Assembly: GCA_945870865.1 (NCBI GenBank)
Contig: CAMBTO010000002.1
Location: 22,535 to 86,534, forward strand
DNA from: Klebsiella pneumoniae
Lineage (GTDB): Bacteria > Pseudomonadota > Gammaproteobacteria > Eutrophobiales > Eutrophobiaceae
Direction: 5' to 3'
Length of the DNA stretch: 64,000 nucleotides
Positions 28,925 to 49,522 of the stretch are shown one piece after another (within the stretch, counting starts at the first letter, position 1; the number at the start of each line of letters is the position of its first letter). The translations under genes were made by a program, and so were the position numbers. The notes below the pieces were generated by a model. It was given only the letters and a program-made list of their open reading frames with translations. It was not told where the DNA came from and searched no databases.

Positions 28925-29641
28925 TCAGGGCAAGTCCCGGTAGCGCAGCGATATCTCTCCGCCGCTGGTTGCCATGCTGGCGAAATAACCGGGTGCGGAG
29001 TCGATATTCATTAGCGTCCAGTCTGCCATGAGTTCGTCTTCCCAGCGCGTCACCAGCAAGCGCGGCGGCTGATACGGATCGACTGACACATCAAACTGTT
29101 TTAATCCCAGGGCGATGCCTTTGCCATGCGCCTTGACGATGGCCTCCTTGCGTGTCCACGTCGCAAAAAATGCCTGCAACCGGATCTGTTCACTACAGTC
29201 CTGAAGTGCCTCGTATTCTGCCGTCGAAAAAAAACGGCGAGCCAGCGTCTGGTAGTCGATATCTGTGCGGACCTTCTCTACGTCAATACCTATATCGTGA
29301 TCCAGCGTCAAGGCTATCATCGCGAGATCCTGCGAATGCGATACGCTGAAACGGACGCGGGTAGGGCCAGGTTGAAATTGCAGGTACGGTTTACCGTCGG
29401 GATGATTGGCAATGGTGATATGTGACAAGTCACAATCCAGCGTTTGTGCCAGTATCTGCCGGAGAGTGCTGCGTGTAATTGTAAACTCCCGCACCTTGCT
29501 GGCGGAGAGGAACTTTGCCGCGCGCTGTCTCTCCTCGTCTGACAGGTACTGTTGGCAGTCCTGTATCTCAGCCTCGGTACGCCCAAGAGGTATCCGGTAG
29601 ATATCCACACTCTCCGGTTTATACCCGGGCATGTTTATCAT
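28925..29641 (-). CDS. pfaE: Sfp-type 4'-phosphopantetheinyl transferase (PfaE-like)
   Basis: GIDVE and WTRKEAIVKAHGKG motifs. It is the last gene of the pfa/ole operon, with a 4-nt overlap with oleD. Confidence 0.8.
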   Translation of the reverse strand: MINMPGYKPESVDIYRIPLGRTEAEIQDCQQYLSDEERQRAAKFLSASKVREFTITRSTLRQILAQTLDCDLSHITIANHPDGKPYLQFQPGPTRVRFSVSHSQDLAMIALTLDHDIGIDVEKVRTDIDYQTLARRFFSTAEYEALQDCSEQIRLQAFFATWTRKEAIVKAHGKGIALGLKQFDVSVDPYQPPRLLVTRWEDELMADWTLMNIDSAPGYFASMATSGGEISLRYRDLP

Positions 29642-32276: not shown

Positions 32277-33187
32277 GATTGAGCTGATTTTGATGGTGTC
32301 CCGATCCGGTGGCGTGCCAGGAAGTCTTGCACCAGTGGGACTATCTGTTCGTGCGCGTCTTCCAGCACATAATGACCGGCATCGGCAAATCGGTGTAACT
32401 CGGCAGCGGGAAAGCGTTCGGTCCAGCCATCCAGGAAATGTTCATCAAATACAAAATCACGCATGCCCCAGCAGATCAACATCGGCAGCTGGCGGAAGCG
32501 GGCGAGGCCCTCGGCGACGGCTGATACAATGTCATACCCGAGGTCGCCAGGTTGCAGCGGGATGTCCTCGACGAACCGACGCACGGCCACACGGTTGGCC
32601 CAGTTGTCATACGGGGCCAGATAGGCCGCAGCGACGTCAGCGTCCATCGGCCTGCGGGTAACGCCGTACCTGACAGCACCACGACAAAACGCATTGAAGC
32701 CTTGATTCAGCAGGGCATTCAGCAGCGGGATGCGACTCAGTTTAAGCGACAACGGTAGATGTTTGCCCGCTGGCAGATGGAATGCGGCTGTATTGAGGAT
32801 GACCAGTCGTTTGATGCGTTCCGGGTGCAGGCTGGCCCAGGCCATGCCGATCATGCCGCCCCAGTCATGCACCACCAGGGTGATATTGCCGGTGATGTCG
32901 AGCTGGTCCAGCAATGCCCCGAGGTCTTCCACCCGCCGTGCCAGCATAAACGGATATTGTGCTGCCAGTGGTTTTTCCGACAGGCCCATGCCGATATGAT
33001 CCGGGACGATGCAGCGATAGTTTCCCTTCAGCGCCAGTACCAGCCTGCGATAATAAAATGACCAGCTCGGATTGCCATGCACCATGACGATGACATCTGC
33101 ATCACGCGGGCCTTCATCCAGATAATGCAGCTTGTAGCCGCGAATATCGACGAAGTGTGAGTTGAATGGATAATCCGGATAGTGCAT
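32273..33187 (-). CDS. oleB: OleB, alpha/beta hydrolase (haloalkane-dehalogenase-like; beta-lactone decarboxylase)
   Basis: MVHGNPSWSFYYR, VVHDWGG nucleophile motif and 304 aa. It lies between oleA and oleC. Confidence 0.8.
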   Translation of the reverse strand: MHYPDYPFNSHFVDIRGYKLHYLDEGPRDADVIVMVHGNPSWSFYYRRLVLALKGNYRCIVPDHIGMGLSEKPLAAQYPFMLARRVEDLGALLDQLDITGNITLVVHDWGGMIGMAWASLHPERIKRLVILNTAAFHLPAGKHLPLSLKLSRIPLLNALLNQGFNAFCRGAVRYGVTRRPMDADVAAAYLAPYDNWANRVAVRRFVEDIPLQPGDLGYDIVSAVAEGLARFRQLPMLICWGMRDFVFDEHFLDGWTERFPAAELHRFADAGHYVLEDAHEQIVPLVQDFLARHRIGTPSKSAQS

Positions 33188-33253: not shown

Positions 33254-34453
33254 TTACCACTCCCAGCCGAGCATCATGCAGTTAAGGCCGCTGCCGATAC
33301 CGAGGAACCCGACCCGGTCGCCACGTTTTAGGAATTTGCGCTGATCGGCGATGGCAGCGGTCATCGGTACCGAGACGGTGCCGATATTGCCGAGGTATTT
33401 ATAGGTACTGAAATCCTTGTCTTTGGAAATCCCGAGCTCGCGTAGAATGGTTTCCTGATGTCCCGAACCGACCTGGTGACAGATGACCTTGTCGATCTCC
33501 TCGCGCGCCCAGCCCATCCGCGTCAGGAACGTGCCCCAGGTCTTTACCCCGAGCTTTACGCCGTGTTTCAGTACCGACACCGAGTCGGTCGACATGAACT
33601 GGGACAAAACCTGTGGCAGCATCTTTGAGGGTAACAGGTTGGCGACGGCGGTTGGCAGTTTCTCGCTGGTCATCAGCTCGCGCATGAACGTAGGCAGGGT
33701 CTCCGGGTTCATCACATCGTCTACCGCGTGCATCAGTTTGTCCGGTGTCAGCATCATCTTGCCGAGCTCGACCGGTGTCATCGTCACGCCCCAGCGGCAC
33801 AGCCGGTGATGTTCGGGGGCGGCCTGAGTGGCGGCACCGATTAATCTGTGAGTATTGCTGTTGCTGAATGAACCGTCGGTCAACAACACAGCGGCCGCAC
33901 CGGAACCGCCGGTCAGCGTCGCCAGTGAGGAGGAGAAGATATCCATCGTCTTTTCGCGCAGCATGCGGTTGATCATGATCTCGACGATCTCGCGTGAGGA
34001 TTCGCAGGACACAACCATACCGGCGCGGATCTGTTTCAATTCGATCCGGTTGGCGATATCAATGATCCCGTTTAATACACCAAGACAGGCATTCGAGATA
34101 TCGTAGACATAGGCATCCGGGCTGATGCCCAGTTTGGCGGCGACCGCGCAGGCGGTGGCCGGTTCGTAGTTCTCGCGGCAGACACCTGCGTAGATCAGTG
34201 TCTGGATATCGCTGGCGCGTACATTCGACTGGTTCAGCGCCTTTAAAGCGGCGGCTGTGGCACCATCCGACAGTGAGTAGCCCTGATCCCACCAGCGGCG
34301 TTCACTGATACCTGTTAATGCTTCCAGCTGACCGGGTGAGATATGCAGCGAGTCGTACATCGGTAACAGCCTGCCTTCCAGTTCTTCCGAGGTGACCACC
34401 ATCGATGGCAACTCGTAACCGATAGACTCCATATGTACGCGGCGAAATATCAT
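33254..34453 (-). CDS. oleA: OleA, FabH-like thiolase (acyl-CoA:acyl-CoA head-to-head Claisen condensing enzyme)
   Basis: FabH/OleA fold (…DISNACLGVLNGI… with catalytic Cys). ~400 aa, longer than FabH. The start overlaps the pfaC stop by 4 nt. Confidence 0.8.
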   Translation of the reverse strand: MIFRRVHMESIGYELPSMVVTSEELEGRLLPMYDSLHISPGQLEALTGISERRWWDQGYSLSDGATAAALKALNQSNVRASDIQTLIYAGVCRENYEPATACAVAAKLGISPDAYVYDISNACLGVLNGIIDIANRIELKQIRAGMVVSCESSREIVEIMINRMLREKTMDIFSSSLATLTGGSGAAAVLLTDGSFSNSNTHRLIGAATQAAPEHHRLCRWGVTMTPVELGKMMLTPDKLMHAVDDVMNPETLPTFMRELMTSEKLPTAVANLLPSKMLPQVLSQFMSTDSVSVLKHGVKLGVKTWGTFLTRMGWAREEIDKVICHQVGSGHQETILRELGISKDKDFSTYKYLGNIGTVSVPMTAAIADQRKFLKRGDRVGFLGIGSGLNCMMLGWEW

Positions 34454-37400
34454 ATGTCTGACATTCTAAGGGTAAAATCGGTCATCTGATAGATGATTCT
34501 GCCATCGACGATCAAAAACCCGTCTGCAGTCAGCAATTTGCGCGTGTCATCTACCTGTTTGACCACAGCAGATACCGTGACCTCATGGTCTTTCGGGATG
34601 ATCTGGCCGCGGTACAACCAGTGGTGTGGCTGATGCAAGGCCATCGATTCGAGGCGGGCCGTCTCGCCGCCCTGCCAGCGCTCGCACGCCACTACTTTCA
34701 GTAACTGGATAAATGATTCCAGTCCGAGAGAGCCGGGCCAGACCGGATCCTGGTAAAAATGGGCCTTGAAGAACCAGGCCTCGGGATTCACGCGGGCAGT
34801 GCCACGGATATAACCGAGTCCGTGTGGTCCACCTTCTGCATCAAAATGTTCAATCCGATCGATCATGCGCATTTGATCAGCCGGGTAGGGCGCCTGTTGT
34901 GGGTAAGCGAACTGCCGCGCACGAGAGACCTCTGTAGCGGTCGGCTGATAGGGCATGACATCGCGGATACCGACCTGATTGGTGAGCGCCTGTCTGGAGA
35001 AGAATCCAAAGTAGGTATCACCCTTATAGACTGTCCCGGCATTGCAGAGGACTTCATAATCATAATTCTGGATGATCATGCCGCCAGACAAGGCCACGTT
35101 GGTCATCTTCACCCGGATCGTCAGCATGCCGGTGTCGGCAGTGACCGGCAGTGTCTGTACCGCCTTGCCACCGAGGTTGCGGAATGACAGATCGGTCTCG
35201 CTGGTCAGGGCCGAGCCGAGATAAGCGGCCATCCAGCCGCAGGGCTGCAAGGCGATCTCAAGTAACACGGAGAAGGGCATGCCTTGTTGCCGGTTCGCAC
35301 CAAAGTACCAGGCGTCTACAGGCACATCGTATTCACCTTCAATGACAGCACCCGCCTTTAATTGCCAGGGTTCGCAGTGATTGATGGAGACGATACGATC
35401 CAGAAACTGGAACGGCGGGCCGGGCAGGCGGGCGATAATCCGATCGTGATCAAACGGCAGGTAACGATCACCAAACGCCTCGGATGGCTTGCCGGTCGCA
35501 AAGGCGAGTATGGAGTTGTAATCATACAGTACGGTCTTGACAGGTGAAGGCGCGGTATTACCGCGTTGTTGCCAGAGTGTCTGCAACTGGTCGCGATGCA
35601 GACCGGTCAGCTGCACCGACATATTGCTCATCTGCACGATCGCGCGACCATCGGCGTACATCAGTGCATCGGCGATCACATACGGTGTGCCGTTAGCCTG
35701 ATAGCCGATTTCCTTCAGTGTAATCTCGTACTGTACCTTGCTGGTCGAGGCGATCACCTGACCACGGCATTTTAATTTGCTGTTGATGCCCGCTACCGGT
35801 TCATAAACAACGGCGGATGCCTCACCAACCCAACCCATGCGCAACAGATAGATGCGCAGTGTGTGCAGGCAACATTCGTACATCAGGGTACCGGGCATCA
35901 CCTGATCATCTATAAAGTGGCAGGTGAGGAACCAGTCGTCCGGATGGATATCCGCCTCACCGGTGATGCGACCGATCCCGTAGCGGCCGGCGCCCGGATC
36001 CAGTTCGAGCACGCGGTGCACCAGTGTCATCCGACCGCCGGGCAGACCGACCGCGTGTTGCAGGGCCAGTCCGGTAAACTGTGGACCAAACGCGGTGACC
36101 AGGTCGCCGCTGCGCAGTGCCTCAATCTGTGTATCGGTGTATGACTCGGTTTGCATGCCTACCAGTGGCTGCCAGTCCGGTGTACGCACGCCATCGGCAG
36201 GACGGCGTTCAAATTCGGTCAGCACGATACCCTTGCCCGCATCGAGTTCAGCCTGGCTGAAAAAACCGGCACAACCGTTCCGCATCGACAGCAGCGGTTT
36301 GCCATTGACCGTACCTTCAAAGCTGAAGCGGAACAGATGGGTGTCACCCTGCCGGAAGAAGCGCTCGATACGAATGTCATAATGGATCGTCTGTCCGGGA
36401 CCCGGCAATGCATCGTGGAAGCTGATCTCGGCGTCAAGCAGGCGGTAGACCGCGAGGCCTTTGGTAATCTGATCGATACCGAGATAACCGGACAGGAACA
36501 GATCGGCCTGGCCTGACTCGACCGCAATACAGGTCGGGATACGCCCGCCATCCAGATACCAGGCACCCGGATGGATATCATGTTCGGTGGTGACGCGGCC
36601 ACTGCCCATCGAGCATGGCTCACCTTCTATCATCAGAATACGATCAACCAGCATCAACGGTTCGTCCGGCAGACGGACCCGTGTGGGGTAACTGTCGATT
36701 GGTGCAAACTGCGGCCCCAGTAGCTTGCCTATTGCTCCGCGCGCGAACTCCAGACACTGCATACGATCCAGCGCAGGCCGTGTCGGCACAACGCTGGCGG
36801 GTTTGGTCGGGTGCAACGTTGTCACAGTCAGTTCAGTTACCTGTGTCGGCATATTCTGTAGCAGCGCCATTTGTAGCGACAAGGCATTGCTGAGTGTATG
36901 GGTGATACCGTTGGCGACCCGCAGATACGTCTCGTGTGCCTGTGCCATCGCCGATTCGGAGCAGGCAATCTGCTCTATTAATGTCTGTGCCGGTGTATAC
37001 GTTGTCAGCCGGGTCGGGTGTGTCAGTACCCGCGCCGTCACGGTTTCTGTCTGCGGTTTTTGTGCAGGTACTCGCGGCAGGCGAATGTCGATGGGGGCAT
37101 GGCCAACCTTGACGCTGATCTGAGGCACCTTCGCCTCGGCCTGTCGGAGACTCGCGGTGTACAGGCTGTCGAGTTGCAGCGGTACCCGGTGTGTGTTCAG
37201 CAGTGCGAGTGTACGCAACACCGAGGCGACACCGTTTTTACCGTTGACGCACACTGCCTGTGCCAGATGCGGCCTGTCCTGCAGGATGCGATCAATCATA
37301 CGGGTACACGAGCCACCGGGCCCCATCTCGATAAACAGGCGTACACCGTCATCAAAGGCCGAGTTGATCACCCGTGTGTAATCAAACGGTTGTAGCGCCT

Positions 37401-40400
37401 GGCCAACGATCGAGTCGGCCGCACTGTCCATAGTGACCGGATAGGCACGCCCGAGGATGCCGCTGTAGAAACGCACGTTCTCCGGCGGGTTGGTCGGGAA
37501 CAGGTGTAACTCACGGTAGGCCTGCTCGACCGGTTTTGCTACATCACAATGTACCGTCGTGATCGTGTCCAGCGGATGAAAACTGCAAGCGAGGTCTTTT
37601 ACCAGCGCCTCAACCGCAATACGGTTGCCACCGATTACACATTCATCCGGTGTATTGATAATCAGCAGATAGACCCAGGGCAATTTCTGTATACGGGCGT
37701 TCAGTATGTCAGCCGGGCATTGAATGACGCCGACCTGCCAGTCCACATCGACATAACTGGATAGTCCCCAGCACTGACGCGCGGCCGTGCATGGACCAGC
37801 GAGTTCGGTGGTGAACAGCGTCGACTGTTGTATACGTTGTAGCATCAGGTCGCGGTCGCGCCAGGTGCGGGTCGCAAACAGACCGGCTGTTTCGCCGAGG
37901 CTGTAGCCGATAATCGCGTCTGGACGCACACCAAAACGGGAAATCACATCACTGACAAATGTACCCAGCCAGACCTGACCAAAAATGACGTCCTGATGAC
38001 CCAGCGGCCCGTTGTCCGTGTCTGCCCAGAATCGAGAGCGTGCAAATTGCGCGGCGAGTGCACCGTTCTCACGGTCGAGGTTTTCCAGCACCTCGGGCCA
38101 GCGACAGGCAATGTCGCGACCCATACCCCGAAAATGGTTGCCGGAGCCCGGGAACACAAAGGCGATTTTGCCCGTATCCGCGAGTGGCTGATCGGTAAAA
38201 TATATACGGTCGCCGATGGGCACCCTGCCACCCTCTACGATCTGGCGGGCTTGCGTTATCAATTCGAGCAGTTGGGTCTGGTTCGCAGCAAGCAGGCTGA
38301 TTGCGCGTTTACGCCTGCCATGTTCGCGGTTCGATTCAAACCAGCGTCGGGCGATAGCGCCGATGTCCTCGTTACTGCGCGTGCGTACCAGTTCGGCAAG
38401 ATGATCCAGTCCGGCGTGCAATTGCGTGCGTTCATCCGCCTCAATGGAAAACAATTTATCATGACAGCCGCCGGACAATACCGACGATGTGTCTATGGCA
38501 TTCGTAATGCTGTGTTCTGCCTGCTCCAGTACCACATGGCAGCAGGAACCGCCGGTGCCAATCGAGGTCGCGAGCGCACGCCGAGGACCGGCGAGTCGAT
38601 CACGCAACCAGTGTTGAGGCGTCTGGTGGACACTGAACCGGCTGTATTCACGAAAACGGGTCTGATCCGATAACACATTACGTAACGGTGGCAACACACG
38701 GTGATAGAGGGCCAGGCTTGCCTTTGCAACCGAGGCGAGTCCCGAGGCGGCACCGGTGTGACCGATGTCTGCCTTGACGCTGGTGATCACCGTGGACTGA
38801 TCCTCGCTGTTGGTGCTGAACACGGAGCACAGCGCTCCGGTCTCCAGTCTGTCCTCGTCTGCGTGACCACTGCCATAGGTCTCGATACAGGAAATGCTGT
38901 CCGGCGCGATATGCGCATCGGCACAGGCCTGCTGTAACGAGCGGGTATAGGTGTTGACCGAGGGTAACAGCGTACCGATGTCACCACCGCTCGCACTGCC
39001 GATACCGGTGAGCAACGAATAGATCCGGTCGCCGTCACGCACGGCATCTTCATGGCGTTTCAGCACGAAGGCAACGGCGCCTTCACCGATCACTGTTCCC
39101 GTGCTGTCCTCAGCAAACGGTCGGCAGATACCGTCGGTGGCATAGGGGCGGGCGGCATCCTGTCCGGCCACGGCACGTACATCACCGGCCAGATCAACCG
39201 CGCCGACAATGGCTATGTTCAGCTCATTTCTCTGCAAGGCGCGTATCGCGGTCTGCAACGCGTGCATGCCGGAACTTTCCTCGCTGGAGACGGTAAAGCC
39301 GGCCCCGCCAAAATTGAATGCGCGGGCAATCCGGCTCGCCACAATCCCGCCGAGTGCACCCATCGTCCGGTTCGCTGTCAGCGGCGGGCCGACCTGATCT
39401 TTCAGGTTTTCAGTCCACTGTTGCAGGCTGTCCGCGTTCAGCTGTATTCCGGACTTTTTGATCCACGCCTGGGCCATATCGGTCATCGCCCAGCGCAGAT
39501 GGAAGTTCGTGGTGTTCAGGTCGAGGCCAATCCCGATAAACACACCGGCATCGGTGCGTTCCTGTCCAACCGGGCCGGACTGCTGTGCATCGTCGAGCGC
39601 GTTCGCGGCCACTTGTAACATCAACAACTGTTGCGGCAGCATGTCCTGCAATTCCTTCGGCGGGATACGGAAACGACCGACCGGTACGTCTACCTGATCT
39701 ATCGTATAACCACGCAGACCGGACAGGCGCGGCAGACCCCAGCGGTTATTGGCCGGCGTTGTGCTGATGTCCTGTAACTCGCCGAGTACTCGCGCGGTGA
39801 AGTCAGGCAGTGAGCGCCACGGTCCGAAACAGGTGTCCATACCGACGATCGCAATCGCCGGAGTGGGAATCGCATCGGGTGCGGTTTTGTTTTTTACCTT
39901 GCCGAAAATGGTAGCTGTTCCGGTTTCAGGCCATTGCTCCAGCAACACATGCGCATTAATACCCCCGAAGCCGAAAGCACTGACTGCAGCACGACGAGGT
40001 TGGTCTGCCTCGCGTGGTTGCCAGTCGCGGGCGTGGTCAAGTACCGTAAACGGACCGTTGTCCAGATCGATGCCACTGGCGGCGTGCTCGAAGTTCGCCA
40101 TCGGTGGTAACAGATTATGTTTGAATGCCAGCAATACCTTAATCAGTCCGGCGGATCCTGCGGCGGTCAGCAGATGGCCAATATTGCTCTTCACCGATCC
40201 AATCACACAGCGCTGCCCGTCACGGTAATGCTGGCCCCACAGTGTGCGCATGCTCTGGTATTCGGTACTGTCACCGGCCGGCGTGCCGGTGCCGTGACAT
40301 TCAATCAGGTCGATCGTATCGGCCTGCCAGCCTGCCTCGGCATAGGCGGCACGCATCGCACGCAGTTGGCCTTCCGAGTCTGGCAACATCAGGTTACCGC

Positions 40401-41262
40401 GTATGTCATTCGAGATGCCGGTACCGGCTATCGTGGCGTAGATGTGGTCCTGATCTCGCAACGCATCTTCCAGTCGTTTGAGCACAAGGATACCCGCGCC
40501 TTCACCAACGACCAGACCATCGGCCTTGCTATCAAACGGGGAACAGCGACCGGAAGGAGACAGCGCACCGAGTGTCGAGAAACCCATCTGCGTATACAGG
40601 CTGTCGGGTCGCGATAGTCCACCACATAACATCGCATCAGCGCGATGGGCCTGTAATTCGGCAACCGCATATTTAAGTGAATACAGTGAAGAGGCACAGG
40701 CCGCATCGAGCGTATAACAGGTCCCGCCGAGTCCCAGTGCGTGTGCAAGCACGGAGGCAGGCAGACCGGCGACATAACGATTAAGTAGGCTGGTCTGTCC
40801 AGGCGGCGTTGCTTTGCCGTTCAGGTGGCTGGCAAAGGCCTGCCCGAGTAATTCATCCGCAATGCTCGCCGAGGTCTGGGTCGGCAACGCAATATTGCCA
40901 ATGATGACCCCGGTGCGGTGTTTGTCCAGCTTCGCGGTAACTGTATCGAGCCAGGCCTGGCGACCGGCGTGTAATAACAGACCAAACATCGGATCCAGAG
41001 ACTGTGCCAGCGCTGCATCAATATTGAGTCCGTCGAGATCGGGGCTAATATCATCAACAAAACAGGCGCGACGTGAATAAACATGATCAGGGCCAGGTGC
41101 TTGCGCGTAGACCTGTTGCAGATCCGGCAACCAGCGTCCCGGTGGCGGCTCGCGTGAAAGGTCGCGCCGTGCCACGATATTGTCCCAGAGTTGTTCAACC
41201 CCGCGGGCACCCGGAAAGATGCCGCCGATGCCAACGATGGCGACGGTCTGTCCCGGTTTCAT
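34450..41262 (-). CDS. pfaC: PUFA-synthase subunit, PfaC-like with embedded acyltransferase: KS - CLF - AT - DH/DH' - DH/DH' (2270 aa)
   Basis: KS active site DAACASSLYSL (~40700). A second KS-like domain lacks Cys (FTVSSEESSGMH), i.e. a chain-length factor. The AT has FVFPGSGNHF and GYSLGE (Ser codon ~37900). There are four hotdog modules with FabA-like motifs (HDIHPGAWY, DIHPDDWFLTCHF, PVDAWYFG, AHFYQDPVWPG). Confidence 0.85.
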   Translation of the reverse strand: MKPGQTVAIVGIGGIFPGARGVEQLWDNIVARRDLSREPPPGRWLPDLQQVYAQAPGPDHVYSRRACFVDDISPDLDGLNIDAALAQSLDPMFGLLLHAGRQAWLDTVTAKLDKHRTGVIIGNIALPTQTSASIADELLGQAFASHLNGKATPPGQTSLLNRYVAGLPASVLAHALGLGGTCYTLDAACASSLYSLKYAVAELQAHRADAMLCGGLSRPDSLYTQMGFSTLGALSPSGRCSPFDSKADGLVVGEGAGILVLKRLEDALRDQDHIYATIAGTGISNDIRGNLMLPDSEGQLRAMRAAYAEAGWQADTIDLIECHGTGTPAGDSTEYQSMRTLWGQHYRDGQRCVIGSVKSNIGHLLTAAGSAGLIKVLLAFKHNLLPPMANFEHAASGIDLDNGPFTVLDHARDWQPREADQPRRAAVSAFGFGGINAHVLLEQWPETGTATIFGKVKNKTAPDAIPTPAIAIVGMDTCFGPWRSLPDFTARVLGELQDISTTPANNRWGLPRLSGLRGYTIDQVDVPVGRFRIPPKELQDMLPQQLLMLQVAANALDDAQQSGPVGQERTDAGVFIGIGLDLNTTNFHLRWAMTDMAQAWIKKSGIQLNADSLQQWTENLKDQVGPPLTANRTMGALGGIVASRIARAFNFGGAGFTVSSEESSGMHALQTAIRALQRNELNIAIVGAVDLAGDVRAVAGQDAARPYATDGICRPFAEDSTGTVIGEGAVAFVLKRHEDAVRDGDRIYSLLTGIGSASGGDIGTLLPSVNTYTRSLQQACADAHIAPDSISCIETYGSGHADEDRLETGALCSVFSTNSEDQSTVITSVKADIGHTGAASGLASVAKASLALYHRVLPPLRNVLSDQTRFREYSRFSVHQTPQHWLRDRLAGPRRALATSIGTGGSCCHVVLEQAEHSITNAIDTSSVLSGGCHDKLFSIEADERTQLHAGLDHLAELVRTRSNEDIGAIARRWFESNREHGRRKRAISLLAANQTQLLELITQARQIVEGGRVPIGDRIYFTDQPLADTGKIAFVFPGSGNHFRGMGRDIACRWPEVLENLDRENGALAAQFARSRFWADTDNGPLGHQDVIFGQVWLGTFVSDVISRFGVRPDAIIGYSLGETAGLFATRTWRDRDLMLQRIQQSTLFTTELAGPCTAARQCWGLSSYVDVDWQVGVIQCPADILNARIQKLPWVYLLIINTPDECVIGGNRIAVEALVKDLACSFHPLDTITTVHCDVAKPVEQAYRELHLFPTNPPENVRFYSGILGRAYPVTMDSAADSIVGQALQPFDYTRVINSAFDDGVRLFIEMGPGGSCTRMIDRILQDRPHLAQAVCVNGKNGVASVLRTLALLNTHRVPLQLDSLYTASLRQAEAKVPQISVKVGHAPIDIRLPRVPAQKPQTETVTARVLTHPTRLTTYTPAQTLIEQIACSESAMAQAHETYLRVANGITHTLSNALSLQMALLQNMPTQVTELTVTTLHPTKPASVVPTRPALDRMQCLEFARGAIGKLLGPQFAPIDSYPTRVRLPDEPLMLVDRILMIEGEPCSMGSGRVTTEHDIHPGAWYLDGGRIPTCIAVESGQADLFLSGYLGIDQITKGLAVYRLLDAEISFHDALPGPGQTIHYDIRIERFFRQGDTHLFRFSFEGTVNGKPLLSMRNGCAGFFSQAELDAGKGIVLTEFERRPADGVRTPDWQPLVGMQTESYTDTQIEALRSGDLVTAFGPQFTGLALQHAVGLPGGRMTLVHRVLELDPGAGRYGIGRITGEADIHPDDWFLTCHFIDDQVMPGTLMYECCLHTLRIYLLRMGWVGEASAVVYEPVAGINSKLKCRGQVIASTSKVQYEITLKEIGYQANGTPYVIADALMYADGRAIVQMSNMSVQLTGLHRDQLQTLWQQRGNTAPSPVKTVLYDYNSILAFATGKPSEAFGDRYLPFDHDRIIARLPGPPFQFLDRIVSINHCEPWQLKAGAVIEGEYDVPVDAWYFGANRQQGMPFSVLLEIALQPCGWMAAYLGSALTSETDLSFRNLGGKAVQTLPVTADTGMLTIRVKMTNVALSGGMIIQNYDYEVLCNAGTVYKGDTYFGFFSRQALTNQVGIRDVMPYQPTATEVSRARQFAYPQQAPYPADQMRMIDRIEHFDAEGGPHGLGYIRGTARVNPEAWFFKAHFYQDPVWPGSLGLESFIQLLKVVACERWQGGETARLESMALHQPHHWLYRGQIIPKDHEVTVSAVVKQVDDTRKLLTADGFLIVDGRIIYQMTDFTLRMSDI

Positions 41263-41303
41263 GCAAATACCTGTAATGACATGATGAGGTTGTATCTTTC
41301 CAC

Positions 41304-44300
41304 TCAGGCCTGAGATTCGGTTTCCAGCTGGTTACGTCTGAATGCCTCATTCAGCGATGCATCAATCACACACTCGTAACCTTCAATTCGTGCGACCAGC
41401 TTGCCCTTCATGTCGACAAATTCAATCGAGGCCTTCGCCTCATGTTTACCCATCGACTCGACCAGCAGATTGATCAACGTGCCGTCTTTCGGAAACTGTC
41501 TCCGGTACTGGCGATATTTGCCGAGGCGGGTTGGCAACGAGCCGTACCCGGTCCGTTCAAAACACCAGAGGATCATTAACTGGAATGCCGAATCCAGCGC
41601 CAGCGGGTCGGCCAGCCAACCGGTGCGTATCGCTTGTTTCATCCACGCCGACGGGTTTGGTGCAGGACGGACACGCGCCGAGATTCCGCGATCACTGTAA
41701 CCGGTGATCGCCTCAATGCCGTGCAGATCCTTGCCGTGGAACAGACGTCCGGATGAATACAGTTCCGCATCGTTTATCGAATAGGTGCCGATGATGACCG
41801 GATTGCCCGCGGCAGGGACAGGGACAGCATCCGTGCCAAGCACGATGTTCGCGCCCGCATGCAGCAGCTTGCCCTGGCGCAGTTCGACCGGGATACGGTG
41901 GATGCCGGCAGACTCGACCGCATTACCGGCGAGGATCTGCAACTCGGCTCGCGCACCCGACTCCAGGATCACACCCTTGTAGATGGCCAGATTATCGATA
42001 CCGTTGAAGTTCAGCCCCGGTTGATCATGCATGGCGCCGTGGGCCAGCCATTCGGCGATTAATGCGGTGGGCAGTACCGCCTTGTCATTCATCACATGCG
42101 ATTTAAGTACCGGCAGATCATTCAGACTGACGGTCCGTTCAAACGTGACGATCATATTATTTGTAACAGACGATTTCGCTACCTTGCCGGAATAATCCGG
42201 CGTGTCTGTCTGCACCGGCGCACTGCCGAGTACGACCAGTTCAACCGGACCCGGTGTGGCGATTTCCTGCAGCAGGTATTCAGCCCCGGCACGTAGCGGG
42301 ATCACACCGACGCCTTCGCCTTCAAAGACCTTCTTCAATCCGGCGGTGACCATGCCACCGTCCCACGGGCCCCAGTTCAAACTGAGCACACGACACGACG
42401 GCCGCAGGTGCTGTTGTTGCTGTGCGGACTTGTTCAGTACTTCATTGGCGGCGGCATAATCGATCTGGCCCTTGCGTCCAAACCTGGCGGTCGAGGACGA
42501 AAACAGTACCAGCAGTTTCAGATCGTCCTGTTGGGTTGCCTCCAGCAGCGACTGCAAGCCGTCCACCTTGGTCGAACAGACCTCGGCAAACTGTGCACGG
42601 GTCTTGTCTTCGATGCGCCGATCCGCGAGTACGCCTGCACCGTGGATAATCCCGCGTATCGGGCCGAGCTCTTCACGGGCCTGTGCCAGCGCCTTGTTTA
42701 CCTCAGCCGGATGACGTATGTCGACGGACTGGTATGTTGCCCGCACGCCACTGGCGCGGACGCGTTCGAGGGTCTGGGCTATCTCACGCGCGGCCATCAG
42801 TTCACGATAACGTGACTCGACCTGTTTTGGATTCGGTCGGTCGGTGCTCTGGGTAACGATGGCACGTTTTATAGTGGCCTCATCAGTCAGGCCTGACAAC
42901 CAGTCGGGCTGTGGTGCAGGTTGCGGACTGCGACCGAGTAATAACAGGTTCGTCTGCATGCGGGTTGCGAGTTCAACCGCGATCGCGGCGGTGATCCCAC
43001 GTGCGCCGCCGCTGATGACGACCACATCACCGCGACCGACCGTGGCCGTTACTGGTGTGTGGGTGTCGAGTGCCACGGGTGTCAGTGTCAGCGTGCTGCA
43101 CTGTCCATCCCGTAGTCCGGTTTCCAGTGGTCCCTCGTGTAACAACTCGTCTACCAGACTGTCGGCCAGTGCTGTTGCCCTGTAGTCTGTGTCGATAACC
43201 CGGCAGCGGACCTGCGACCATTCCTTGTCGGCGGTCTTGATCAGGCCGGCCAGTCCGCCCGCCAGCGGCGAGGCATCGGTGTGGTGTGTCAGCGCAAAAC
43301 GGCCACCGAGGCCGGTGACACCGGCCAGCAGCACAACTTGCGCGGCGGCGGTCTGTTTTAACGCGGGGCCGTAGTGGCGGATTAATTCAAATACCTCTGC
43401 CAGAAAATCCGGGTGCGGCTGTGCCGGTGTAACGATGACCAGACCGGCCACTGCGTCCGTTCGTCGTTCGTGTATACCGATCACGCTGGCGTTATACCCA
43501 CGTGCCTGAAATGCATTACATATTGCGGTGGACAACCCGTCACCGGAATCGGTCACATGGAGGATAGCTTGCGCAGGCAGATCCAGTGGATTGCGATTGC
43601 TGGCAGGCTCCAGCGGTGTGACTGACAAGACACCGCGCCACAGTGTATTCGGCTGTACCGTGCGCAGCCTGGTCTCTACCGGTTGCACCGCAGTAGCCGG
43701 TGCGACAGTATTGCCCTGATGCATGTAGTCCACTATCTGTTGCAGTGTCTGCAAGGTGGCCATGTGTTCCGGATTGACCGTGGGTGCGTCCGGCATGCGT
43801 TCCTGGAATGCAGAGAGGATCTCGACGCGCTTGATCGAATCTATACCAAGGTCAGTATCGAGATTCATATCAAGCCGCAGCATATCGACCGGGTAACCGG
43901 TCTTGTCGGCGACCACGTCCAGCAATGCCTGATCAAATACCGGTGTTGCAGTGCCTGGTTTAGTTGTCACTGCTAATGCGACGCTTGCGTCTCCAGCACC
44001 ACCCCGGGTCTGCATATAATCCACGATCTGTTGCAGTGTCTGTAATGCGGCCATGTCTTCCGGATTCACCGTCGGTGCTTCAGGCATACGCTCCTGGAAC
44101 GCAGACAGGATCTCGACGCGTTTGATCGAATCAATACCAAGGTCGGTATCCAGATTCATATCGAGTCGCAGCATATCAACCGTGTAACCGGTCTTCTCCG
44201 CAACTACCTCAAGCAAGGCCTGGTTCAGGCTGGCGTCTGCGATGACAGTGACGACGGGTGTCATCATGCTGGCCGGGGTACTGTGAGTTTCGGCATCGTC

Positions 44301-47300
44301 GGCCAGATATTCAATAATATTTTTCAGCAACCTGAACGTGCCAAGGTCCTCTGGCTGGATCTTGCGAATGCCGGGCAGCCGCTCCTGCAGGCCGGAGAGG
44401 ATCTCGACGCGTTTGATCGAATCGATTCCGAGGTCGGTATCCAGACTCATCTCTATGCTGAGCATCTCGACCGGATAACCGGTCTTCTCGGCGATGACCT
44501 GCAATAAAATCGTTTCCAGTTTTCCGGTGCTTGCTGCCGGGGCAGAGACGACCGGCGCTGTGACAACCGGGGCAGGTGTGGTGATGACCGGCGTTGTTGC
44601 TGTTCTGACAGTGGGTGCCGCGGGTAGTGTCGTTTGCACTGGCGCAATAAGCAGCGGGCTGATCGGTATGCCGGTCAATAATAGTTGCTGCTGTTCCAGT
44701 AGACGCTGGATTGAAAGCTGTGCCGCCTGCTGGCCTTCCAGATAACGGCGATGTAACTCGGCGGTCTGCTCCTGCATCTGTTGCAATGCGAGTATGCTTT
44801 GTTGTGTGGTAGCCAGTAGTTGCTGTGCCTGCGGAGCATCAGTGCCGGTGGGCAGTGTGATCGCGACGGTTTGCGCAGCGGGTGTTGTGGCTACGCCGGG
44901 TCGCGCTGGTGTTGCGGTAGTGCTGGCCGGTGTGGTCGGTGTGATCTGCATACGGGCAGGTTCCTGTCTGGTTTTTTGCGGTTGCGGGCGCGGCTTCACA
45001 TAGTTGGCGCCCGTCAGAGTGATTGTCATCGCCGGTTTTTTGGTGGAGGCCGCAGGCAGCTGTGTCAGCCACTGGGCGTCCCACAGACTGATACGGCAGC
45101 CGTGTCCGAGTGCGGCAAGCCGCGCGAGTGTGCAGGCGAGATCATATTGCCCGCCCTGTTTGCCCTTTGATGCATCCAGCGTGATGCTCGTGTGATCACG
45201 ATCACCCAGGATGGATCGGACCAGCCCGGTCAGTGTGTTGCCAGGGCCGGTCTCTACGAAGGTGCGGATACCCTTCGCATACATGTTTTCTATCTGGGTG
45301 ACAAACTCGACCGGTTGCGCGAGCTGGCGCGCCAGCAACTGCCGTACCGCCGCCTCGGCCTGCGGGTAACACTCGGCTGTCGTGTTTGCATAGACCGGGA
45401 GCTTGCCCTTGTGGAAGCGGACCGATTGCATAAACTGTGCGAACGGTTTTTCCGCTGCGCTGACAAAGCTGCTGTGGAACGCAGCGGAGACGGTCAAAAC
45501 CTTTGCGCTCAGCCCGCGTTTCTTCAGCACCTCGGCGGCACGTCGGATCTGATCGGTGGCACCGGACAGGACCACCTGTCGTGGCGCATTGTTGTTCGCA
45601 ATGATCAGATCCAGCTGCTCTGCCTCCAGAATTTCGTGGATGACCGCCGCAGAGGCAGACGCAGCCAGCATGGAGCCATGATCACCCTCACTCATATTCA
45701 TCAGTTCACCACGCTTGATCGCAAGCCGGTGCAGACTGTCACTATCGATACGACCGGCGGCGCACAGCGCGGTCAATTCACCAAAACTGTGACCGGCAGT
45801 CGCCTCGGCCTCAACACCAAAATAGTCGAGCAGGCGCAGCGCACCCAGACTGACGGCACCGATCGCCGGTTGGGCATACTGGGTTGCACGCAAGGCCTCG
45901 GCCTGTGCCGTCCGCGCCTCGTCGTTAAACACCGGTATTGGATAGATGCGTTTGCCCAGTGATTCGCCGCCATTCATCTCGCTGAATATCTGATCGGCCT
46001 CGGCCAGCGCTGACTGTATCAGCGGAAACTGGCAGGCCAGATCGAGCAGCATGTCCGGGTACTGTGAACCCTGACCGGGGAACAGCATCGCCAGTTTGCC
46101 TGTCGGTTTGCCTGTACCAAACCAGGCACCTTCTGGCAGGCTCCACTGGTTCAGATCCTGGTTCTGTAACATCTGGCGCGTGTCATTGAACAGTTTGTCC
46201 AGGCCACTCTTCGGTGTGATCACGAATAACAGGCGGCAGGGGTCGGCGCTGTTAAATTGTTGCAGACTGCGTGCCGCCTGCGTGCGCAGTAAGTCCCAGT
46301 CCTGTTTCAGATCGATTGCATTTAATTTACCGAGCAGCGACTGACGGTTATCCGCAGACAGTCCGAGTACTAGCACCTTGCCGTCCCAGTCGATCTCCGT
46401 GGTGGCCGTCGGTGCTTCCTCCAGCACACAATGGAAATTGCTGCCACCGAAGCCAAACGCACTGATCGCGCCACGGCGCGGGTGGGCGGGTGAGCCGATC
46501 CACGGACGTTTCAGCGTATTTACATAGACCGGTGCGGTGCCGGGGTTCAGGATCTCAAGTGGCTGGGCGACCTTGATTGTGGGGGGCAAGACCTTGTGTT
46601 TCAACGCCATCGCCACCTTGATCAGTCCGGCCACACCGGCCGCGGCCTTGGTATGGCCGATCATCGATTTGACCGAACCGATGGCACACCAGCTGCCTTC
46701 CGCTTGCGCCTCACGATAAACCGAAGACAGTGCCTCGGCCTCGACCGCATCGCCGACGCGTGTACCGGTGCCGTGTGCCTCGACCAGTTCGATAGTGGCA
46801 GGCGAGACGCCAGCCTCACGGTAGGCATTTTTCAGCGCGCGGGTCTGACCATTCGCACTGGGTGCGTAGATCGCATTGCCACGGCCGTCGCTCGATGAGC
46901 CTATGCCACGCAGTACGGCATAAATATTGTCGCCATCGCGCTCGGCATCGGCGAGCCGCTTCAGGACAATCGCGCCGAGGCCCTCACCGAGGATGGTGCC
47001 GTCACCGTTGCTGTCGAACGGTTTGCTGTTACCGGTCGGTGACAGTGCCGGTGTCTTGCTGAAACACATGTACATGAAGATATCGTTAAACGTATCAAAG
47101 CCACCGGTGATCGCCATGTCAGAGCGGCCCGAATACAATTCAAGCGCGGCCAGGTGGATCGCACTGAGCGAACTGGCACAGGCGGCGTCAACGACGCAGT
47201 TGGTGCCACCGAGGTCAAAGCGGTTGGCGATCCGGCCAGCGGCCACATTGCCGAGCAGACCGGGGAACGAGTTTTCCTGCCAGGGCACATAACCGGCGGA

Positions 47301-47852
47301 GATACGTTCGACCACCTCTTCTGCAACAGTCTGATCGACCCCGGCATCGGCCAGCGCCTTGCGCCAGATCGGGTGACCGAGTCTGGCACCGAGCGGGATG
47401 ACCAGCTCCAGCGTACCGGTCACGCCGAGGATGACGCTGGTGCGGTTGCGATCAAACGGTTTACCATCATTGCTGTCACGGCCGGTTGCATAACCAGCAT
47501 CAAGCAGGGCCTGACGGGCGACGACCATGCCGAGCAACTGGGTCGTGTCGGTCGCTTCAATATTTTTCGGACTAAGGCCATACAACAGCGGGTCAAAATC
47601 GACCGGGTTGATAAAGCCGCCGCGCCGCGCATAGGTCATATCGGGCGCGTGTTTGTCTGCATTGAAATAATCGTCCGGGTTCCAGTGGGTCGGTGGCACC
47701 TCGGTGATCGCATCCACACCATCGCGGATATTGGTCCAGTACGTCTGCGGGTCGCTCGCGCCGGGGAACAGGCAGCCGATGCCGACAATCGCCAGTGGTA
47801 CGGCAGTGGCGGTGGTATGGTCTTCCGGTAAGGCGTCAGGCTTCTTGGTCAC
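41304..47852 (-). CDS. pfaA: PUFA-synthase subunit PfaA-like: KS - AT - [Pro/Thr/Ala/Gln-rich linker] - 3x ACP - KR - DH (2182 aa)
   Basis: KS motif VDAACASSLSAIH (Cys codon ~47183). AT motifs FPGQGSQ and GHSFGE (Ser ~45788). Three tandem ACPs each carry DTDLGIDSIKRVEIL. The KR has VVISGGARGITAAIA and the PKS DH has HVMNDKAVLP. Confidence 0.85.
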   Translation of the reverse strand: MTKKPDALPEDHTTATAVPLAIVGIGCLFPGASDPQTYWTNIRDGVDAITEVPPTHWNPDDYFNADKHAPDMTYARRGGFINPVDFDPLLYGLSPKNIEATDTTQLLGMVVARQALLDAGYATGRDSNDGKPFDRNRTSVILGVTGTLELVIPLGARLGHPIWRKALADAGVDQTVAEEVVERISAGYVPWQENSFPGLLGNVAAGRIANRFDLGGTNCVVDAACASSLSAIHLAALELYSGRSDMAITGGFDTFNDIFMYMCFSKTPALSPTGNSKPFDSNGDGTILGEGLGAIVLKRLADAERDGDNIYAVLRGIGSSSDGRGNAIYAPSANGQTRALKNAYREAGVSPATIELVEAHGTGTRVGDAVEAEALSSVYREAQAEGSWCAIGSVKSMIGHTKAAAGVAGLIKVAMALKHKVLPPTIKVAQPLEILNPGTAPVYVNTLKRPWIGSPAHPRRGAISAFGFGGSNFHCVLEEAPTATTEIDWDGKVLVLGLSADNRQSLLGKLNAIDLKQDWDLLRTQAARSLQQFNSADPCRLLFVITPKSGLDKLFNDTRQMLQNQDLNQWSLPEGAWFGTGKPTGKLAMLFPGQGSQYPDMLLDLACQFPLIQSALAEADQIFSEMNGGESLGKRIYPIPVFNDEARTAQAEALRATQYAQPAIGAVSLGALRLLDYFGVEAEATAGHSFGELTALCAAGRIDSDSLHRLAIKRGELMNMSEGDHGSMLAASASAAVIHEILEAEQLDLIIANNNAPRQVVLSGATDQIRRAAEVLKKRGLSAKVLTVSAAFHSSFVSAAEKPFAQFMQSVRFHKGKLPVYANTTAECYPQAEAAVRQLLARQLAQPVEFVTQIENMYAKGIRTFVETGPGNTLTGLVRSILGDRDHTSITLDASKGKQGGQYDLACTLARLAALGHGCRISLWDAQWLTQLPAASTKKPAMTITLTGANYVKPRPQPQKTRQEPARMQITPTTPASTTATPARPGVATTPAAQTVAITLPTGTDAPQAQQLLATTQQSILALQQMQEQTAELHRRYLEGQQAAQLSIQRLLEQQQLLLTGIPISPLLIAPVQTTLPAAPTVRTATTPVITTPAPVVTAPVVSAPAASTGKLETILLQVIAEKTGYPVEMLSIEMSLDTDLGIDSIKRVEILSGLQERLPGIRKIQPEDLGTFRLLKNIIEYLADDAETHSTPASMMTPVVTVIADASLNQALLEVVAEKTGYTVDMLRLDMNLDTDLGIDSIKRVEILSAFQERMPEAPTVNPEDMAALQTLQQIVDYMQTRGGAGDASVALAVTTKPGTATPVFDQALLDVVADKTGYPVDMLRLDMNLDTDLGIDSIKRVEILSAFQERMPDAPTVNPEHMATLQTLQQIVDYMHQGNTVAPATAVQPVETRLRTVQPNTLWRGVLSVTPLEPASNRNPLDLPAQAILHVTDSGDGLSTAICNAFQARGYNASVIGIHERRTDAVAGLVIVTPAQPHPDFLAEVFELIRHYGPALKQTAAAQVVLLAGVTGLGGRFALTHHTDASPLAGGLAGLIKTADKEWSQVRCRVIDTDYRATALADSLVDELLHEGPLETGLRDGQCSTLTLTPVALDTHTPVTATVGRGDVVVISGGARGITAAIAVELATRMQTNLLLLGRSPQPAPQPDWLSGLTDEATIKRAIVTQSTDRPNPKQVESRYRELMAAREIAQTLERVRASGVRATYQSVDIRHPAEVNKALAQAREELGPIRGIIHGAGVLADRRIEDKTRAQFAEVCSTKVDGLQSLLEATQQDDLKLLVLFSSSTARFGRKGQIDYAAANEVLNKSAQQQQHLRPSCRVLSLNWGPWDGGMVTAGLKKVFEGEGVGVIPLRAGAEYLLQEIATPGPVELVVLGSAPVQTDTPDYSGKVAKSSVTNNMIVTFERTVSLNDLPVLKSHVMNDKAVLPTALIAEWLAHGAMHDQPGLNFNGIDNLAIYKGVILESGARAELQILAGNAVESAGIHRIPVELRQGKLLHAGANIVLGTDAVPVPAAGNPVIIGTYSINDAELYSSGRLFHGKDLHGIEAITGYSDRGISARVRPAPNPSAWMKQAIRTGWLADPLALDSAFQLMILWCFERTGYGSLPTRLGKYRQYRRQFPKDGTLINLLVESMGKHEAKASIEFVDMKGKLVARIEGYECVIDASLNEAFRRNQLETESQA
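43700..44519. repeat. three tandem ~290-bp near-identical DNA repeats encoding the ACP domains of pfaA
   Basis: Repeated blocks GATCTCGACGCG(C/T)TTGATCGAATC…CAAGGTC(A/G)GTATC…CATATC(A/G)A…CAGCATATC(G/A)ACCG(G/T)GTAACCGGTCTT have their Ser codons at ~43838, ~44129 and ~44423. Confidence 0.8.
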
Positions 47853-49522
47853 GATAGATATCTCATGATGGCGGAGGATTCGAGCGGTTTTACAGCAACG
47901 GATGCCGTGGCGCGTACGCCTTGCATCCGCAGTTGATTAATACGGGTGAAGAGTGCAGCGCCGTACATCAGGTTCAGTGCGACATTGGCCACGTTACGGT
48001 TGGCCGGTTGTTCGAGCGCGGTGCCACGGGTCCATTCATTGAATGCACCCATCGCCGGCCCGCACCAGATTTGATAGTCGATCTGGCGTTCAGTAACACC
48101 GGCATTGGCCCAGCGCGATGACAGCCCCAGGTACCAGCGGAACAGCAGCGCCATTTTATGTTTCGGCTCCTTGTCGGCGCGTGCAATCTCGGCTGGATTA
48201 CGTTCATTGAAAAATTCACGGGTCTGTTGCCAGATGGTCTCGATCGACGCCTTGAAGATCGTCTTTTCCAGCGACTCACGTTCTGCCTGCGGGATCTGTT
48301 CGATGGAGCCATAGGCGCGATACAGCTCGTACAACTTGTTGCTGCGCATCGGAAACATGGTGCCGCGTTTCAGCACCTGCAATTTTACGCCCATCTCGAA
48401 CATATCAACCGCTGGCGCCATCGCCACGTCGGCCTGATCGGCGGTGGCGAGCATTTGCCTGACCAGATCGCTGCTGCCCGATTCGATGCAGGCCTGGTTA
48501 ACGCTGCCGGTGACGATATACGCCGCGCCGATTGCAAACGCGGCGGCGGCCGTAGCCGGGGTCGCAATGCCACCGGCCGCACCAACACGCAGTGGCTGGG
48601 CATAGTTATATTGTGCCTGCAATTTATCGCGTAGTTCGAGCATCGTCGGTAACAACGTCAGCGCGGGGCGATTGTCGGTATGACCACCGGAGTCGGCCTC
48701 GACGGTCAGGTCTTGTGCCATCGGGATCTGTGTGGCGAGTTCGGCCTGTTCAGTAGTGATGATGCCCTGTGCCAGCAGTTCGTTGACAAACTTTGCCGGT
48801 GGCGGACTGAACCAGCGTGTTGCGACCTCCTGGCGTGAGGCCTTCGCGATGATCCGGTTTGGTATAACGATCGTGCCCTGTGCATCGCGGTGAATGCCAT
48901 GCAGGCGGTAGCGCACTACCTGCAATGTCAGCGCCATATAGGCGGAGGCCTCGACCAGGCGGATGCCGTGGCGCAGGTACACATCAACGACGGCCTTTTC
49001 CTGGCCCTTCTCATTCGGACTATGGATCAGGTTCGCGCAAAACGGTGTATCACCGAGTGCGGCTTTTAATTCGAGTATGGCCGCCTCGATCTGATTAACC
49101 ATCAAACCGGCCGCACCAAACGAGCCGAGCATACCCGCTTGCGCTATTGCCCTGACCAACCGTGTTGAGGCGATACCGTTCGCCATCGCACCGGTCATAT
49201 AAGGCAGGCGGATGCCGTGATCACGGCAGAAGCTCACATCACCCAGATCAGTGATGCGTAGCGGCGGTATCCAGGCGTTTAAGGGGTAATCGCCGGTCTG
49301 TGAAGTTCCGAGCGTGGCGTGGCCGCTGTTGCTGTAAATCTCAATGCCATTCTGATCGATGACATAGAGCGATTTATCGATCGCCGCAATTGCCCCGGCC
49401 AGTGTGGTTTGACCAGCAGATTTGTCTGACGCGTCAGCCGTCCACCCGCCGAGCCGAGTCGACCGGAAAGCGTGAGTGGGGATCTGATCAAACGCAGCGG
49501 GGGCGTTTGTTTGCATGTTCAC
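47849..49522 (-). CDS. pfaD: PfaD-like trans-enoyl reductase (2-nitropropane-dioxygenase-like FMN enzyme)
   Basis: …YMTGAMANGIAS…GAAGL… is typical of the PfaD ER. It is the first gene of the operon, with a GTG or ATG start at 49522/49516 preceded by AAGGA, and a 4-nt overlap with pfaA. Confidence 0.8.
   Translation of the reverse strand: MNMQTNAPAAFDQIPTHAFRSTRLGGWTADASDKSAGQTTLAGAIAAIDKSLYVIDQNGIEIYSNSGHATLGTSQTGDYPLNAWIPPLRITDLGDVSFCRDHGIRLPYMTGAMANGIASTRLVRAIAQAGMLGSFGAAGLMVNQIEAAILELKAALGDTPFCANLIHSPNEKGQEKAVVDVYLRHGIRLVEASAYMALTLQVVRYRLHGIHRDAQGTIVIPNRIIAKASRQEVATRWFSPPPAKFVNELLAQGIITTEQAELATQIPMAQDLTVEADSGGHTDNRPALTLLPTMLELRDKLQAQYNYAQPLRVGAAGGIATPATAAAAFAIGAAYIVTGSVNQACIESGSSDLVRQMLATADQADVAMAPAVDMFEMGVKLQVLKRGTMFPMRSNKLYELYRAYGSIEQIPQAERESLEKTIFKASIETIWQQTREFFNERNPAEIARADKEPKHKMALLFRWYLGLSSRWANAGVTERQIDYQIWCGPAMGAFNEWTRGTALEQPANRNVANVALNLMYGAALFTRINQLRMQGVRATASVAVKPLESSAIMRYLS

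Follow-up and report, generated by a model that had tools for sequence, protein, structure and literature searches.

An eight-gene pfa–ole operon with a fused pfaBC gene, predicted to feed olefin synthesis in an uncultured gammaproteobacterium

Introduction

What does a polyunsaturated fatty acid (PUFA) synthase make when its genes are laid out differently from the canonical pfaABCD clusters? The question is raised by a 64,000-nucleotide stretch of contig CAMBTO010000002.1 (positions 22,535 to 86,534 of the forward strand), here called the window, in which an earlier note had described a Pfa-type synthase of unusual architecture and had held its product to be unpredictable from the classical clusters. 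Gene content and order indicate that window positions 28925-49522 probably constitute a single eight-gene pfa–ole operon, in which the synthase feeds olefin synthesis in an uncultured gammaproteobacterium. The product class is predictable and is most likely a very long-chain head-to-head polyunsaturated olefin, based on the gene order shared with Geobacter bemidjiensis and on the recurrence of oleA directly after pfaBC in related loci (55 of 71).

Layout of the operon

The eight genes, pfaD-pfaA-pfaBC-oleA-oleB-oleC-oleD-pfaE, span 20.6 kb of the minus strand. In order of transcription, and with protein lengths in amino acids (aa), they are as follows.

47849-49522, minus strand: pfaD, 557 aa, enoyl reductase (ER) of the PfaD family, operon gene 1
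41304-47852, minus strand: pfaA, 2182 aa, with ketosynthase (KS), acyltransferase (AT), three acyl carrier proteins (ACPs), ketoreductase (KR) and dehydratase (DH)
34450-41262, minus strand: pfaBC fusion, 2270 aa, with KS, chain length factor (CLF), AT and four FabA hotdogs
33254-34453, minus strand: oleA, non-decarboxylative Claisen-condensing thiolase
32273-33187, minus strand: oleB, alpha/beta-hydrolase of the haloalkane dehalogenase (HLD) fold, putative beta-lactone decarboxylase
30630-32276, minus strand: oleC, predicted AMP-dependent beta-lactone synthetase
29638-30633, minus strand: oleD, predicted NAD(P)H-dependent 2-alkyl-3-oxoalkanoate reductase
28925-29641, minus strand: pfaE, phosphopantetheinyl transferase (PPTase) of the Sfp/HetI type, last operon gene

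The earlier note had closed the cluster at 34450, but five more genes (oleA to pfaE) follow pfaBC on its strand, four of the five being joined by 4-bp overlaps. Across all eight genes, five of the junctions are 4-bp overlaps of start and stop codons and the other two are gaps, of 41 and 66 bp; the overlaps lie between pfaD and pfaA (GTGA), between the pfaBC stop and the oleA start (ATGA), and at oleB/oleC, oleC/oleD and oleD/pfaE. Catalytic residues are intact in every domain checked. The G+C content (GC) of the operon is 0.545-0.589, compared with 0.552 for the window, and a foreign origin, considered on grounds of composition, received no clear signal from this comparison.

The synthase: PfaD, PfaA and PfaBC

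As the earlier note had observed, the ER gene leads the operon. Its product scores 652.9 bits against the PfaD model TIGR02814 (cutoff 449.25), is also matched by the Pfam families NMO and FabD_helical_ins, and is 79% identical, over 100% of its length, to the protein of the closest related locus (L005). The second protein, PfaA, is matched by TIGR02813 with 1627 bits (cutoff 1010), and its domains were placed by Pfam and by sequence motifs.

46569-47798, minus strand: KS of PfaA (Pfam)
45216-46085, minus strand: AT of PfaA, motif GHSFGE (Pfam and motif)
43719-44519, minus strand: three ACPs of PfaA, LGIDSI at residues 1141, 1238 and 1335, in three PP-binding stretches
42360-43022, minus strand: KR of PfaA, motif YAAAN (Pfam and motif)
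41370-42149, minus strand: PS-DH domain of PfaA (Pfam)

The three ACPs reported earlier are thus present. Since the number of ACPs in 39 PfaA homologues ranges from one to five, and is mostly two to four, three is ordinary for the family. The same applies to the AT embedded in PfaBC, which is present as described and is conserved in the family; both features were seen correctly, but neither is the oddity that it had been taken for.

The third protein, PfaBC, combines the following parts.

40087-41247, minus strand: KS of PfaBC, motifs DAACAS, HGTGT and NIGH
38704-39861, minus strand: CLF of PfaBC, a further KS-like domain that lacks the Cys
37162-38178, minus strand: PfaB-type AT of PfaBC, GYSLGE at residues 1119-1124, with Ser1121 at window 37900-37902
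34468-36765, minus strand: four FabA hotdogs of PfaBC, forming two DH/isomerase units, with a catalytic His in two of the four stretches (His1782 and His2168)

Its KS-CLF region matches PDB chain 6riw_A, the KS-CLF of PfaC, with an E value of 3.7e-124. The AT, with its GYSLGE serine, lies between the CLF and the four hotdogs of this 2270-aa protein, where it had been placed before. The absence of a separate pfaB is likewise borne out within the 64-kb window, in which tblastn with the AT domains of PfaA and PfaBC as queries found no third AT. Nor does PfaBC carry a C-terminal acylglycerol-phosphate acyltransferase (AGPAT): the last FabA domain (residues 2127-2260) runs almost to the end of the 2270-aa protein, and no PlsC acyltransferase match was obtained there. 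The layout is therefore non-canonical with respect to pfaABCD and resembles the myxobacterial pfa1-pfa2-pfa3 arrangement minus the AGPAT, as the earlier note had proposed.

The embedded acyltransferase

Whether the AT within PfaBC might be a degenerate, non-catalytic stretch was a concern raised at the outset. By family models alone the domain scores below threshold, with 27.9 bits against the Pfam AT model (threshold 32.7) and 121.7 bits for PfaBC against the PfaB-family model TIGR02816 (threshold 144.3), the latter because, apart from the AT half, that model has no counterpart in PfaBC. The best match among solved structures is chain 9ry8_A ('PfaBs', the PfaB of Shewanella baltica; E 6.5e-32), in an alignment that sets GYSLGE over GYSMGE and His1238 over the catalytic His. 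In an alignment of 12 homologous sequences, with identity down to 54%, the His never varies, and the nucleophile is Ser in all but one sequence, which has Cys. A degenerate AT is ruled out by the conserved nucleophile and His in homologues, together with the strong structure-sequence match to PfaB. Two PfaBC homologues (P0056 and P0026) depart at the nucleophile motif; one has GYCLGE, with Cys for the nucleophile Ser, and the other a malonyl-AT-like GHSLGE.

The published hallmarks of PfaB-type ATs are a Tyr rather than a His before the nucleophile, a Ser-His dyad, and loss of both the malonyl-binding Arg and the Gln of PGQxQ (PMC12895367). The AT of PfaBC has all of these, with GYS, TTVH1238 and PGSGN, and with Gln1146 at the Arg-aligned position, i.e. 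no malonyl-binding Arg. On this sequence evidence it is classified as PfaB-type and not degenerate. Arg1143, which is invariant in the family, lies three residues before the position aligned with Arg117 of FabD; it was considered as the malonyl-binding Arg equivalent to FabD Arg117 and dropped, as the ungapped PfaB alignment puts Gln1146 there. Because PfaB is described as acting on long acyl chains late in synthesis or at its end, and as helping to set their final length (PMC12895367), the AT of PfaBC may be assigned the same role. Compared with the PfaB proteins of synthases making eicosapentaenoic acid (EPA) or docosahexaenoic acid, the window AT has Ser as its oxyanion residue (PGSGN), and the residue after its nucleophile is Leu, not Met.

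The Ole enzymes and PfaE

OleA is matched by PRK09258 with 477 bits (cutoff 285) and aligns with Xanthomonas campestris OleA (3row, E 3e-54) at Cys123, the Glu of RENYEP, the His of HQV and the Asn of GNIG. An identical OleA protein was found on metagenome contigs with the same operon. The OleB candidate scores 103.5 bits against Abhydrolase_1, carries an HDWGG nucleophile motif and the His of GHY, has proteins of the HLD fold as its best PDB matches, and occupies a place between oleA and oleC that is conserved in relatives. In the literature, OleB is the beta-lactone decarboxylase, and the presence of oleB separates olefin clusters from beta-lactone clusters (PMC7064751). OleC exceeds the cutoff of its family model, PRK09274 (706.6 bits vs 478), and OleD matches 3Beta_HSD with 177 bits. 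PfaE matches ACPS with 76 bits and AASDHPPT_N with 42 bits, and a PPTase stands in the same terminal position in many related loci.

Distribution among related loci

PfaBC has more than 7800 database homologues; of the 120 top-ranking ones, nearly all extend over the full length (approximately 2180-2410 aa). Using one genome per species, 80 related loci were assembled, and synteny was counted in those with enough flanking DNA. The closest, with 76% identity, comes from a gammaproteobacterial metagenome-assembled genome (MAG); the set as a whole includes Gammaproteobacteria, Geobacter and other Desulfuromonadales, Planctomycetota, Verrucomicrobiota, Acidobacteriota, Gemmatimonadota, Elusimicrobia and more. 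oleA lies immediately 3' of pfaBC on the same strand in the 55 of 71 loci mentioned above, the full oleABCD set is present in 43 of 63, and pfaD and pfaA lie 5' of pfaBC in 40 of 55. In a neighbour-joining tree of PfaBC, which is rough, without bootstrap and drawn without reference sequences of the published Types A-T, the window and L005 fall in a monophyletic gammaproteobacterial clade near clades of Phycisphaerae, Verrucomicrobia and Geobacter/Desulfuromonadales. The other genes of the window (valS, pepA, lptF/lptG, pcnB, rdgC and ptsP) fit a gammaproteobacterial chromosome, and several closed MAG chromosomes or contigs in the gammaproteobacterial clade measure 2.1-2.8 Mb.

Variants of the arrangement were also seen. 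Four gammaproteobacterial MAG loci (L009, L042, L047 and L066) have pfaBC-oleABCD-pfaE together, but the 10 kb upstream contain neither pfaD nor pfaA, which suggests that part of the clade has its synthase genes divided among separate loci. Two loci from delta-proteobacterial MAGs (L044 and L059) have pfaBC followed by oleB-oleC-oleD without oleA, and one from a Planctomycetia MAG (L053) has its ole genes downstream of pfaBC on the opposite strand.

Relation to known pfa and ole systems

Shulse and Allen defined 20 types of pfa-like clusters, often linked to ole genes (PMC3098273). Their Type I, found in Geobacter, Desulfuromonas, Pelobacter and Gemmata, has pfaB and pfaC fused (PMC3098273). 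Since G. bemidjiensis makes hentriacontanonaene, a C31:9 polyene, they proposed that this type supplies precursors for olefins; within the cluster type the C31:9 product is known only for G. bemidjiensis (cited in PMC3098273 and PMC4882568). The published order in G. bemidjiensis is pfaD-pfaA-pfaBC-oleABCD-pfaE in tandem (Yoshida et al. 2016, PMC4882568), and by gene order the window cluster belongs to this G. bemidjiensis-type pfa–ole arrangement and probably to Type I. The earlier suggestion that the locus is one of the 'secondary lipid' pfa-like types accordingly holds, based on the Type I order and the pfaBC fusion, while its companion claim, that the product cannot be predicted from classical clusters, gives way to an olefin class indicated by that same order.

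The likeness to G. bemidjiensis extends from an identical gene order to a KS-CLF-AT-DH2 pfaBC, few ACPs and no AGPAT, and the retrieved loci from Geobacter and Desulfuromonadales are collinear with the window. The two systems differ in host, which for the window is an uncultured gammaproteobacterium and not an anaerobic member of the deltaproteobacteria or a planctomycete, and in sequence, the proteins being approximately 50-58% identical; in addition, the window OleA has a 52-aa insertion, and the window product is a prediction. Shewanella species, which make both EPA and C31:9 with pfaEABCD (Type A) and oleABCD, have the same enzyme set and chemistry; the catalytic Cys123 of the window OleA is at the position of that residue in S. 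pealeana OleA (C123A mutant, PMC6463001), and both Shewanella PfaB (PDB 9ry8) and the window AT are PfaB-type with GYSxG. Unlike the window, Shewanella has a separate PfaB, pfaD in last place, a PfaA with four to six ACPs, and unlinked pfa and ole loci, and it also uses a thioesterase, PfaT, whereas no pfaT-like thioesterase is annotated in the flanks of the window operon.

The myxobacterial pfa1-pfa2-pfa3 clusters of Aetherobacter and Sorangium share with the window an ER gene in first place and an AT between the CLF and DH domains of the third protein, but their Pfa3 has a terminal AGPAT and they yield PUFAs found in lipids; the window has oleABCD instead. With regard to the ole half, the X. 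campestris OleABCD pathway is similar in that its OleA is the best structural-sequence match, with conserved catalytic residues, and homologues of OleB, OleC and OleD come in the same order. It differs in condensing acyl-CoAs derived from a type II fatty acid synthase, in having no linked Pfa synthase, and in an OleA without the 52-aa insertion. Finally, the canonical Type A/B pfaABCD(E) clusters have a stand-alone PfaB and the order A-B-C-D, unlike the fused AT and leading pfaD of the window. The architecture and its linkage to ole genes are already published, and a literature search for gammaproteobacterial pfa–ole clusters found nothing relevant. What is new within the literature searched is the presence of the cluster in a gammaproteobacterial lineage and the insertion in OleA, a modest novelty.

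Proposed pathway and product

By homology, PfaE would phosphopantetheinylate the three ACPs of PfaA. The synthase, comprising the KS, AT, KR and DH of PfaA, the KS-CLF and two FabA-type DH/isomerases of PfaBC, and the ER PfaD, would use malonyl units to make a medium-chain polyunsaturated acyl-ACP anaerobically, as is established for Pfa synthases, and the embedded PfaB-type AT would act on long chains towards or at the end of the process rather than load malonyl units (PMC12895367). OleA would next condense two chains head-to-head, straight from the synthase ACPs. Such a link between the two pathways was demonstrated in vivo in Shewanella, where OleA takes 16:4n-3 directly from the Pfa ACPs and no acyl-CoA synthetase is needed (Allemann et al., PMC6463001). 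OleD would then reduce the 2-alkyl-3-keto acid, OleC would close the beta-lactone and OleB would decarboxylate it to a cis-olefin, steps that are established for X. campestris.

The most likely single product, with chances that are about even, is C31:9 hentriacontanonaene assembled from two 16:4n-3 units, by analogy with G. bemidjiensis and Shewanella. One verrucomicrobium and one planctomycete reportedly make C31:9 as well (Sukovich 2010). The recurrence of this product in Shewanella, in G. bemidjiensis and, reportedly, in the latter two organisms suggests that the interception of 16:4 is robust to large sequence divergence.

The insertion in OleA

The insertion in OleA comprises 52 aa (residues 229-280, window 33614-33769, minus strand), is rich in Met, Pro and Leu (ELGKMMLTPDKLMHAVDDVMNPETLPTFMRELMTSEKLPTAVANLLPSKMLP), and lies between the two thiolase halves. 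It is kept in all OleAs of the gammaproteobacterial clade and is missing from those of Geobacter, Planctomycetota, Acidobacteriota and X. campestris; the best 120 database matches to the protein are all 392 or 399 aa long. An AlphaFold2 model of OleA was too poor to place it (mean predicted local distance difference test score, pLDDT, 52.6; predicted template modelling score, pTM, 0.40). It is tempting, if rather unlikely, to regard the insertion as a new docking or gating element for acyl chains arriving from the synthase ACPs, or as one that turns the pathway towards a polyene hydrocarbon different from C31:9.

Alternative explanations

Several observations weigh against the assignment of the locus to an olefin operon with a product like that of Geobacter. 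Scans for promoters and terminators gave counts no better than shuffled sequence, and so the single transcript is deduced from gene spacing only. OleC scores below the equivalog cutoffs of both olefin beta-lactone synthetase models (NF045785, 632 vs 850 bits; NF045786, 612 bits), OleD reaches 439 and 426 bits with its best matches, the 2-alkyl-3-oxoalkanoate reductase models NF042423 and NF042422 (cutoff 580), and PfaE is sub-threshold at 160.8 bits against the HetI model; consequently, these three assignments rest on best match plus synteny. The insertion in OleA, which has no counterpart in the Geobacter or X. campestris enzyme, could change substrate choice, and chain length and unsaturation are not readable from sequence. 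By analogy with Shewanella, in which the same synthase has a dual output, EPA may be made beside the olefin.

On a rival view, in line with the earlier note, pfaD-pfaA-pfaBC would by itself be a non-canonical synthase of PUFA or of a secondary lipid, with its fatty acid going to membrane lipids and the ole genes mere neighbours. The three genes are indeed complete by themselves, in Shewanella one Pfa synthase supplies both EPA and the olefin precursor (PMC6463001), and 16 of 71 related loci are without oleA directly downstream. Yet pfaBC and oleA share 4 bp at their junction, and the PPTase on which PfaA depends is encoded on the far side of oleD, so that the ole genes are bracketed by the synthase's own accessory gene. 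Moreover, the pfa–ole arrangement is kept across phyla, there is neither an AGPAT domain nor an adjacent thioesterase to send free PUFA into lipids, and for Geobacter with the same cluster it is the C31:9 olefin that is reported, its other products being described as largely unknown (PMC4882568). A synthase independent of the ole genes is therefore improbable. More improbable still, to the point of being barely credible, is a pathway that ends at a beta-lactone or ketone because the alpha/beta-hydrolase is not a functional OleB. Such an ending would accord with the sub-cutoff scores of the haloalkane-dehalogenase models and with the fact that no curated OleB-specific model exists, but not with a hydrolase in the oleB position that has HDWGG, the GHY His, an HLD fold and a conserved place in most relatives, or with beta-lactone clusters that characteristically have no oleB (PMC7064751).

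The alternative of most weight leaves the pfa–ole pathway intact and changes only its product, which, owing to a diverged synthase and the OleA insertion, would differ from C31:9 in chain length or double bonds. This is a doubtful but serious possibility. In its favour, PfaBC is only about 52% identical to its Geobacter homologues and sits in a separate gammaproteobacterial clade, the OleA insertion is conserved in that clade only, and the length of the finished chain depends in part on the PfaB-type AT (PMC12895367), which in the window is different at its oxyanion and post-nucleophile residues. Against it, Shewanella and G. bemidjiensis both make C31:9 despite having Types A and I, respectively, according to PMC3098273 and PMC4882568. 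An operon whose synthase supplies OleABCD with polyunsaturated chains remains the preferred explanation.

Neighbouring features of the window

Just past the end of the operon, the window encodes a bacterial MEKHLA-domain protein (25914-26570, plus strand), and the neighbours of its gene (24114-25754 and 27210-27914) include an amidase, an open reading frame (ORF) for an ABM-type monooxygenase and an OmpR-type response regulator. Positions 21850-24100 are low in GC (0.467 vs 0.55 for the window) and contain small ORFs only, one of 173 aa (22103-22624) and one for a 150-aa DUF386 protein (23443-23895). A 681-aa protein (19525-21570, plus strand) carries a phytase domain of the beta-propeller kind in its C-terminal part (Pfam Phytase, 306 bits), preceded by an N-terminal region of approximately 340 aa that falls outside any assigned domain. 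The sole Rfam match in the window is a single tRNA gene (61470-61542, minus strand).

Significance

No new kind of system is revealed by this locus; rather, what had been flagged as an unpredictable product becomes a concrete prediction, namely a polyene hydrocarbon of the C31:9 type. Tandem pfa–ole clusters, originally described from a planctomycete and from Deltaproteobacteria that live anaerobically, are standard as well in a gammaproteobacterial lineage that is uncultured but abundant, and in many other phyla, which bears on the question of which bacteria make environmental polyunsaturated hydrocarbons. The locus also bears on the role of PfaB-type ATs when the acyl chain goes to OleA and not to phospholipid, as well as on compact eight-gene operons usable for hydrocarbon production. 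If the OleA insertion does redirect the pathway, then these abundant gammaproteobacteria would be an unrecognized environmental source of a distinct polyunsaturated hydrocarbon.

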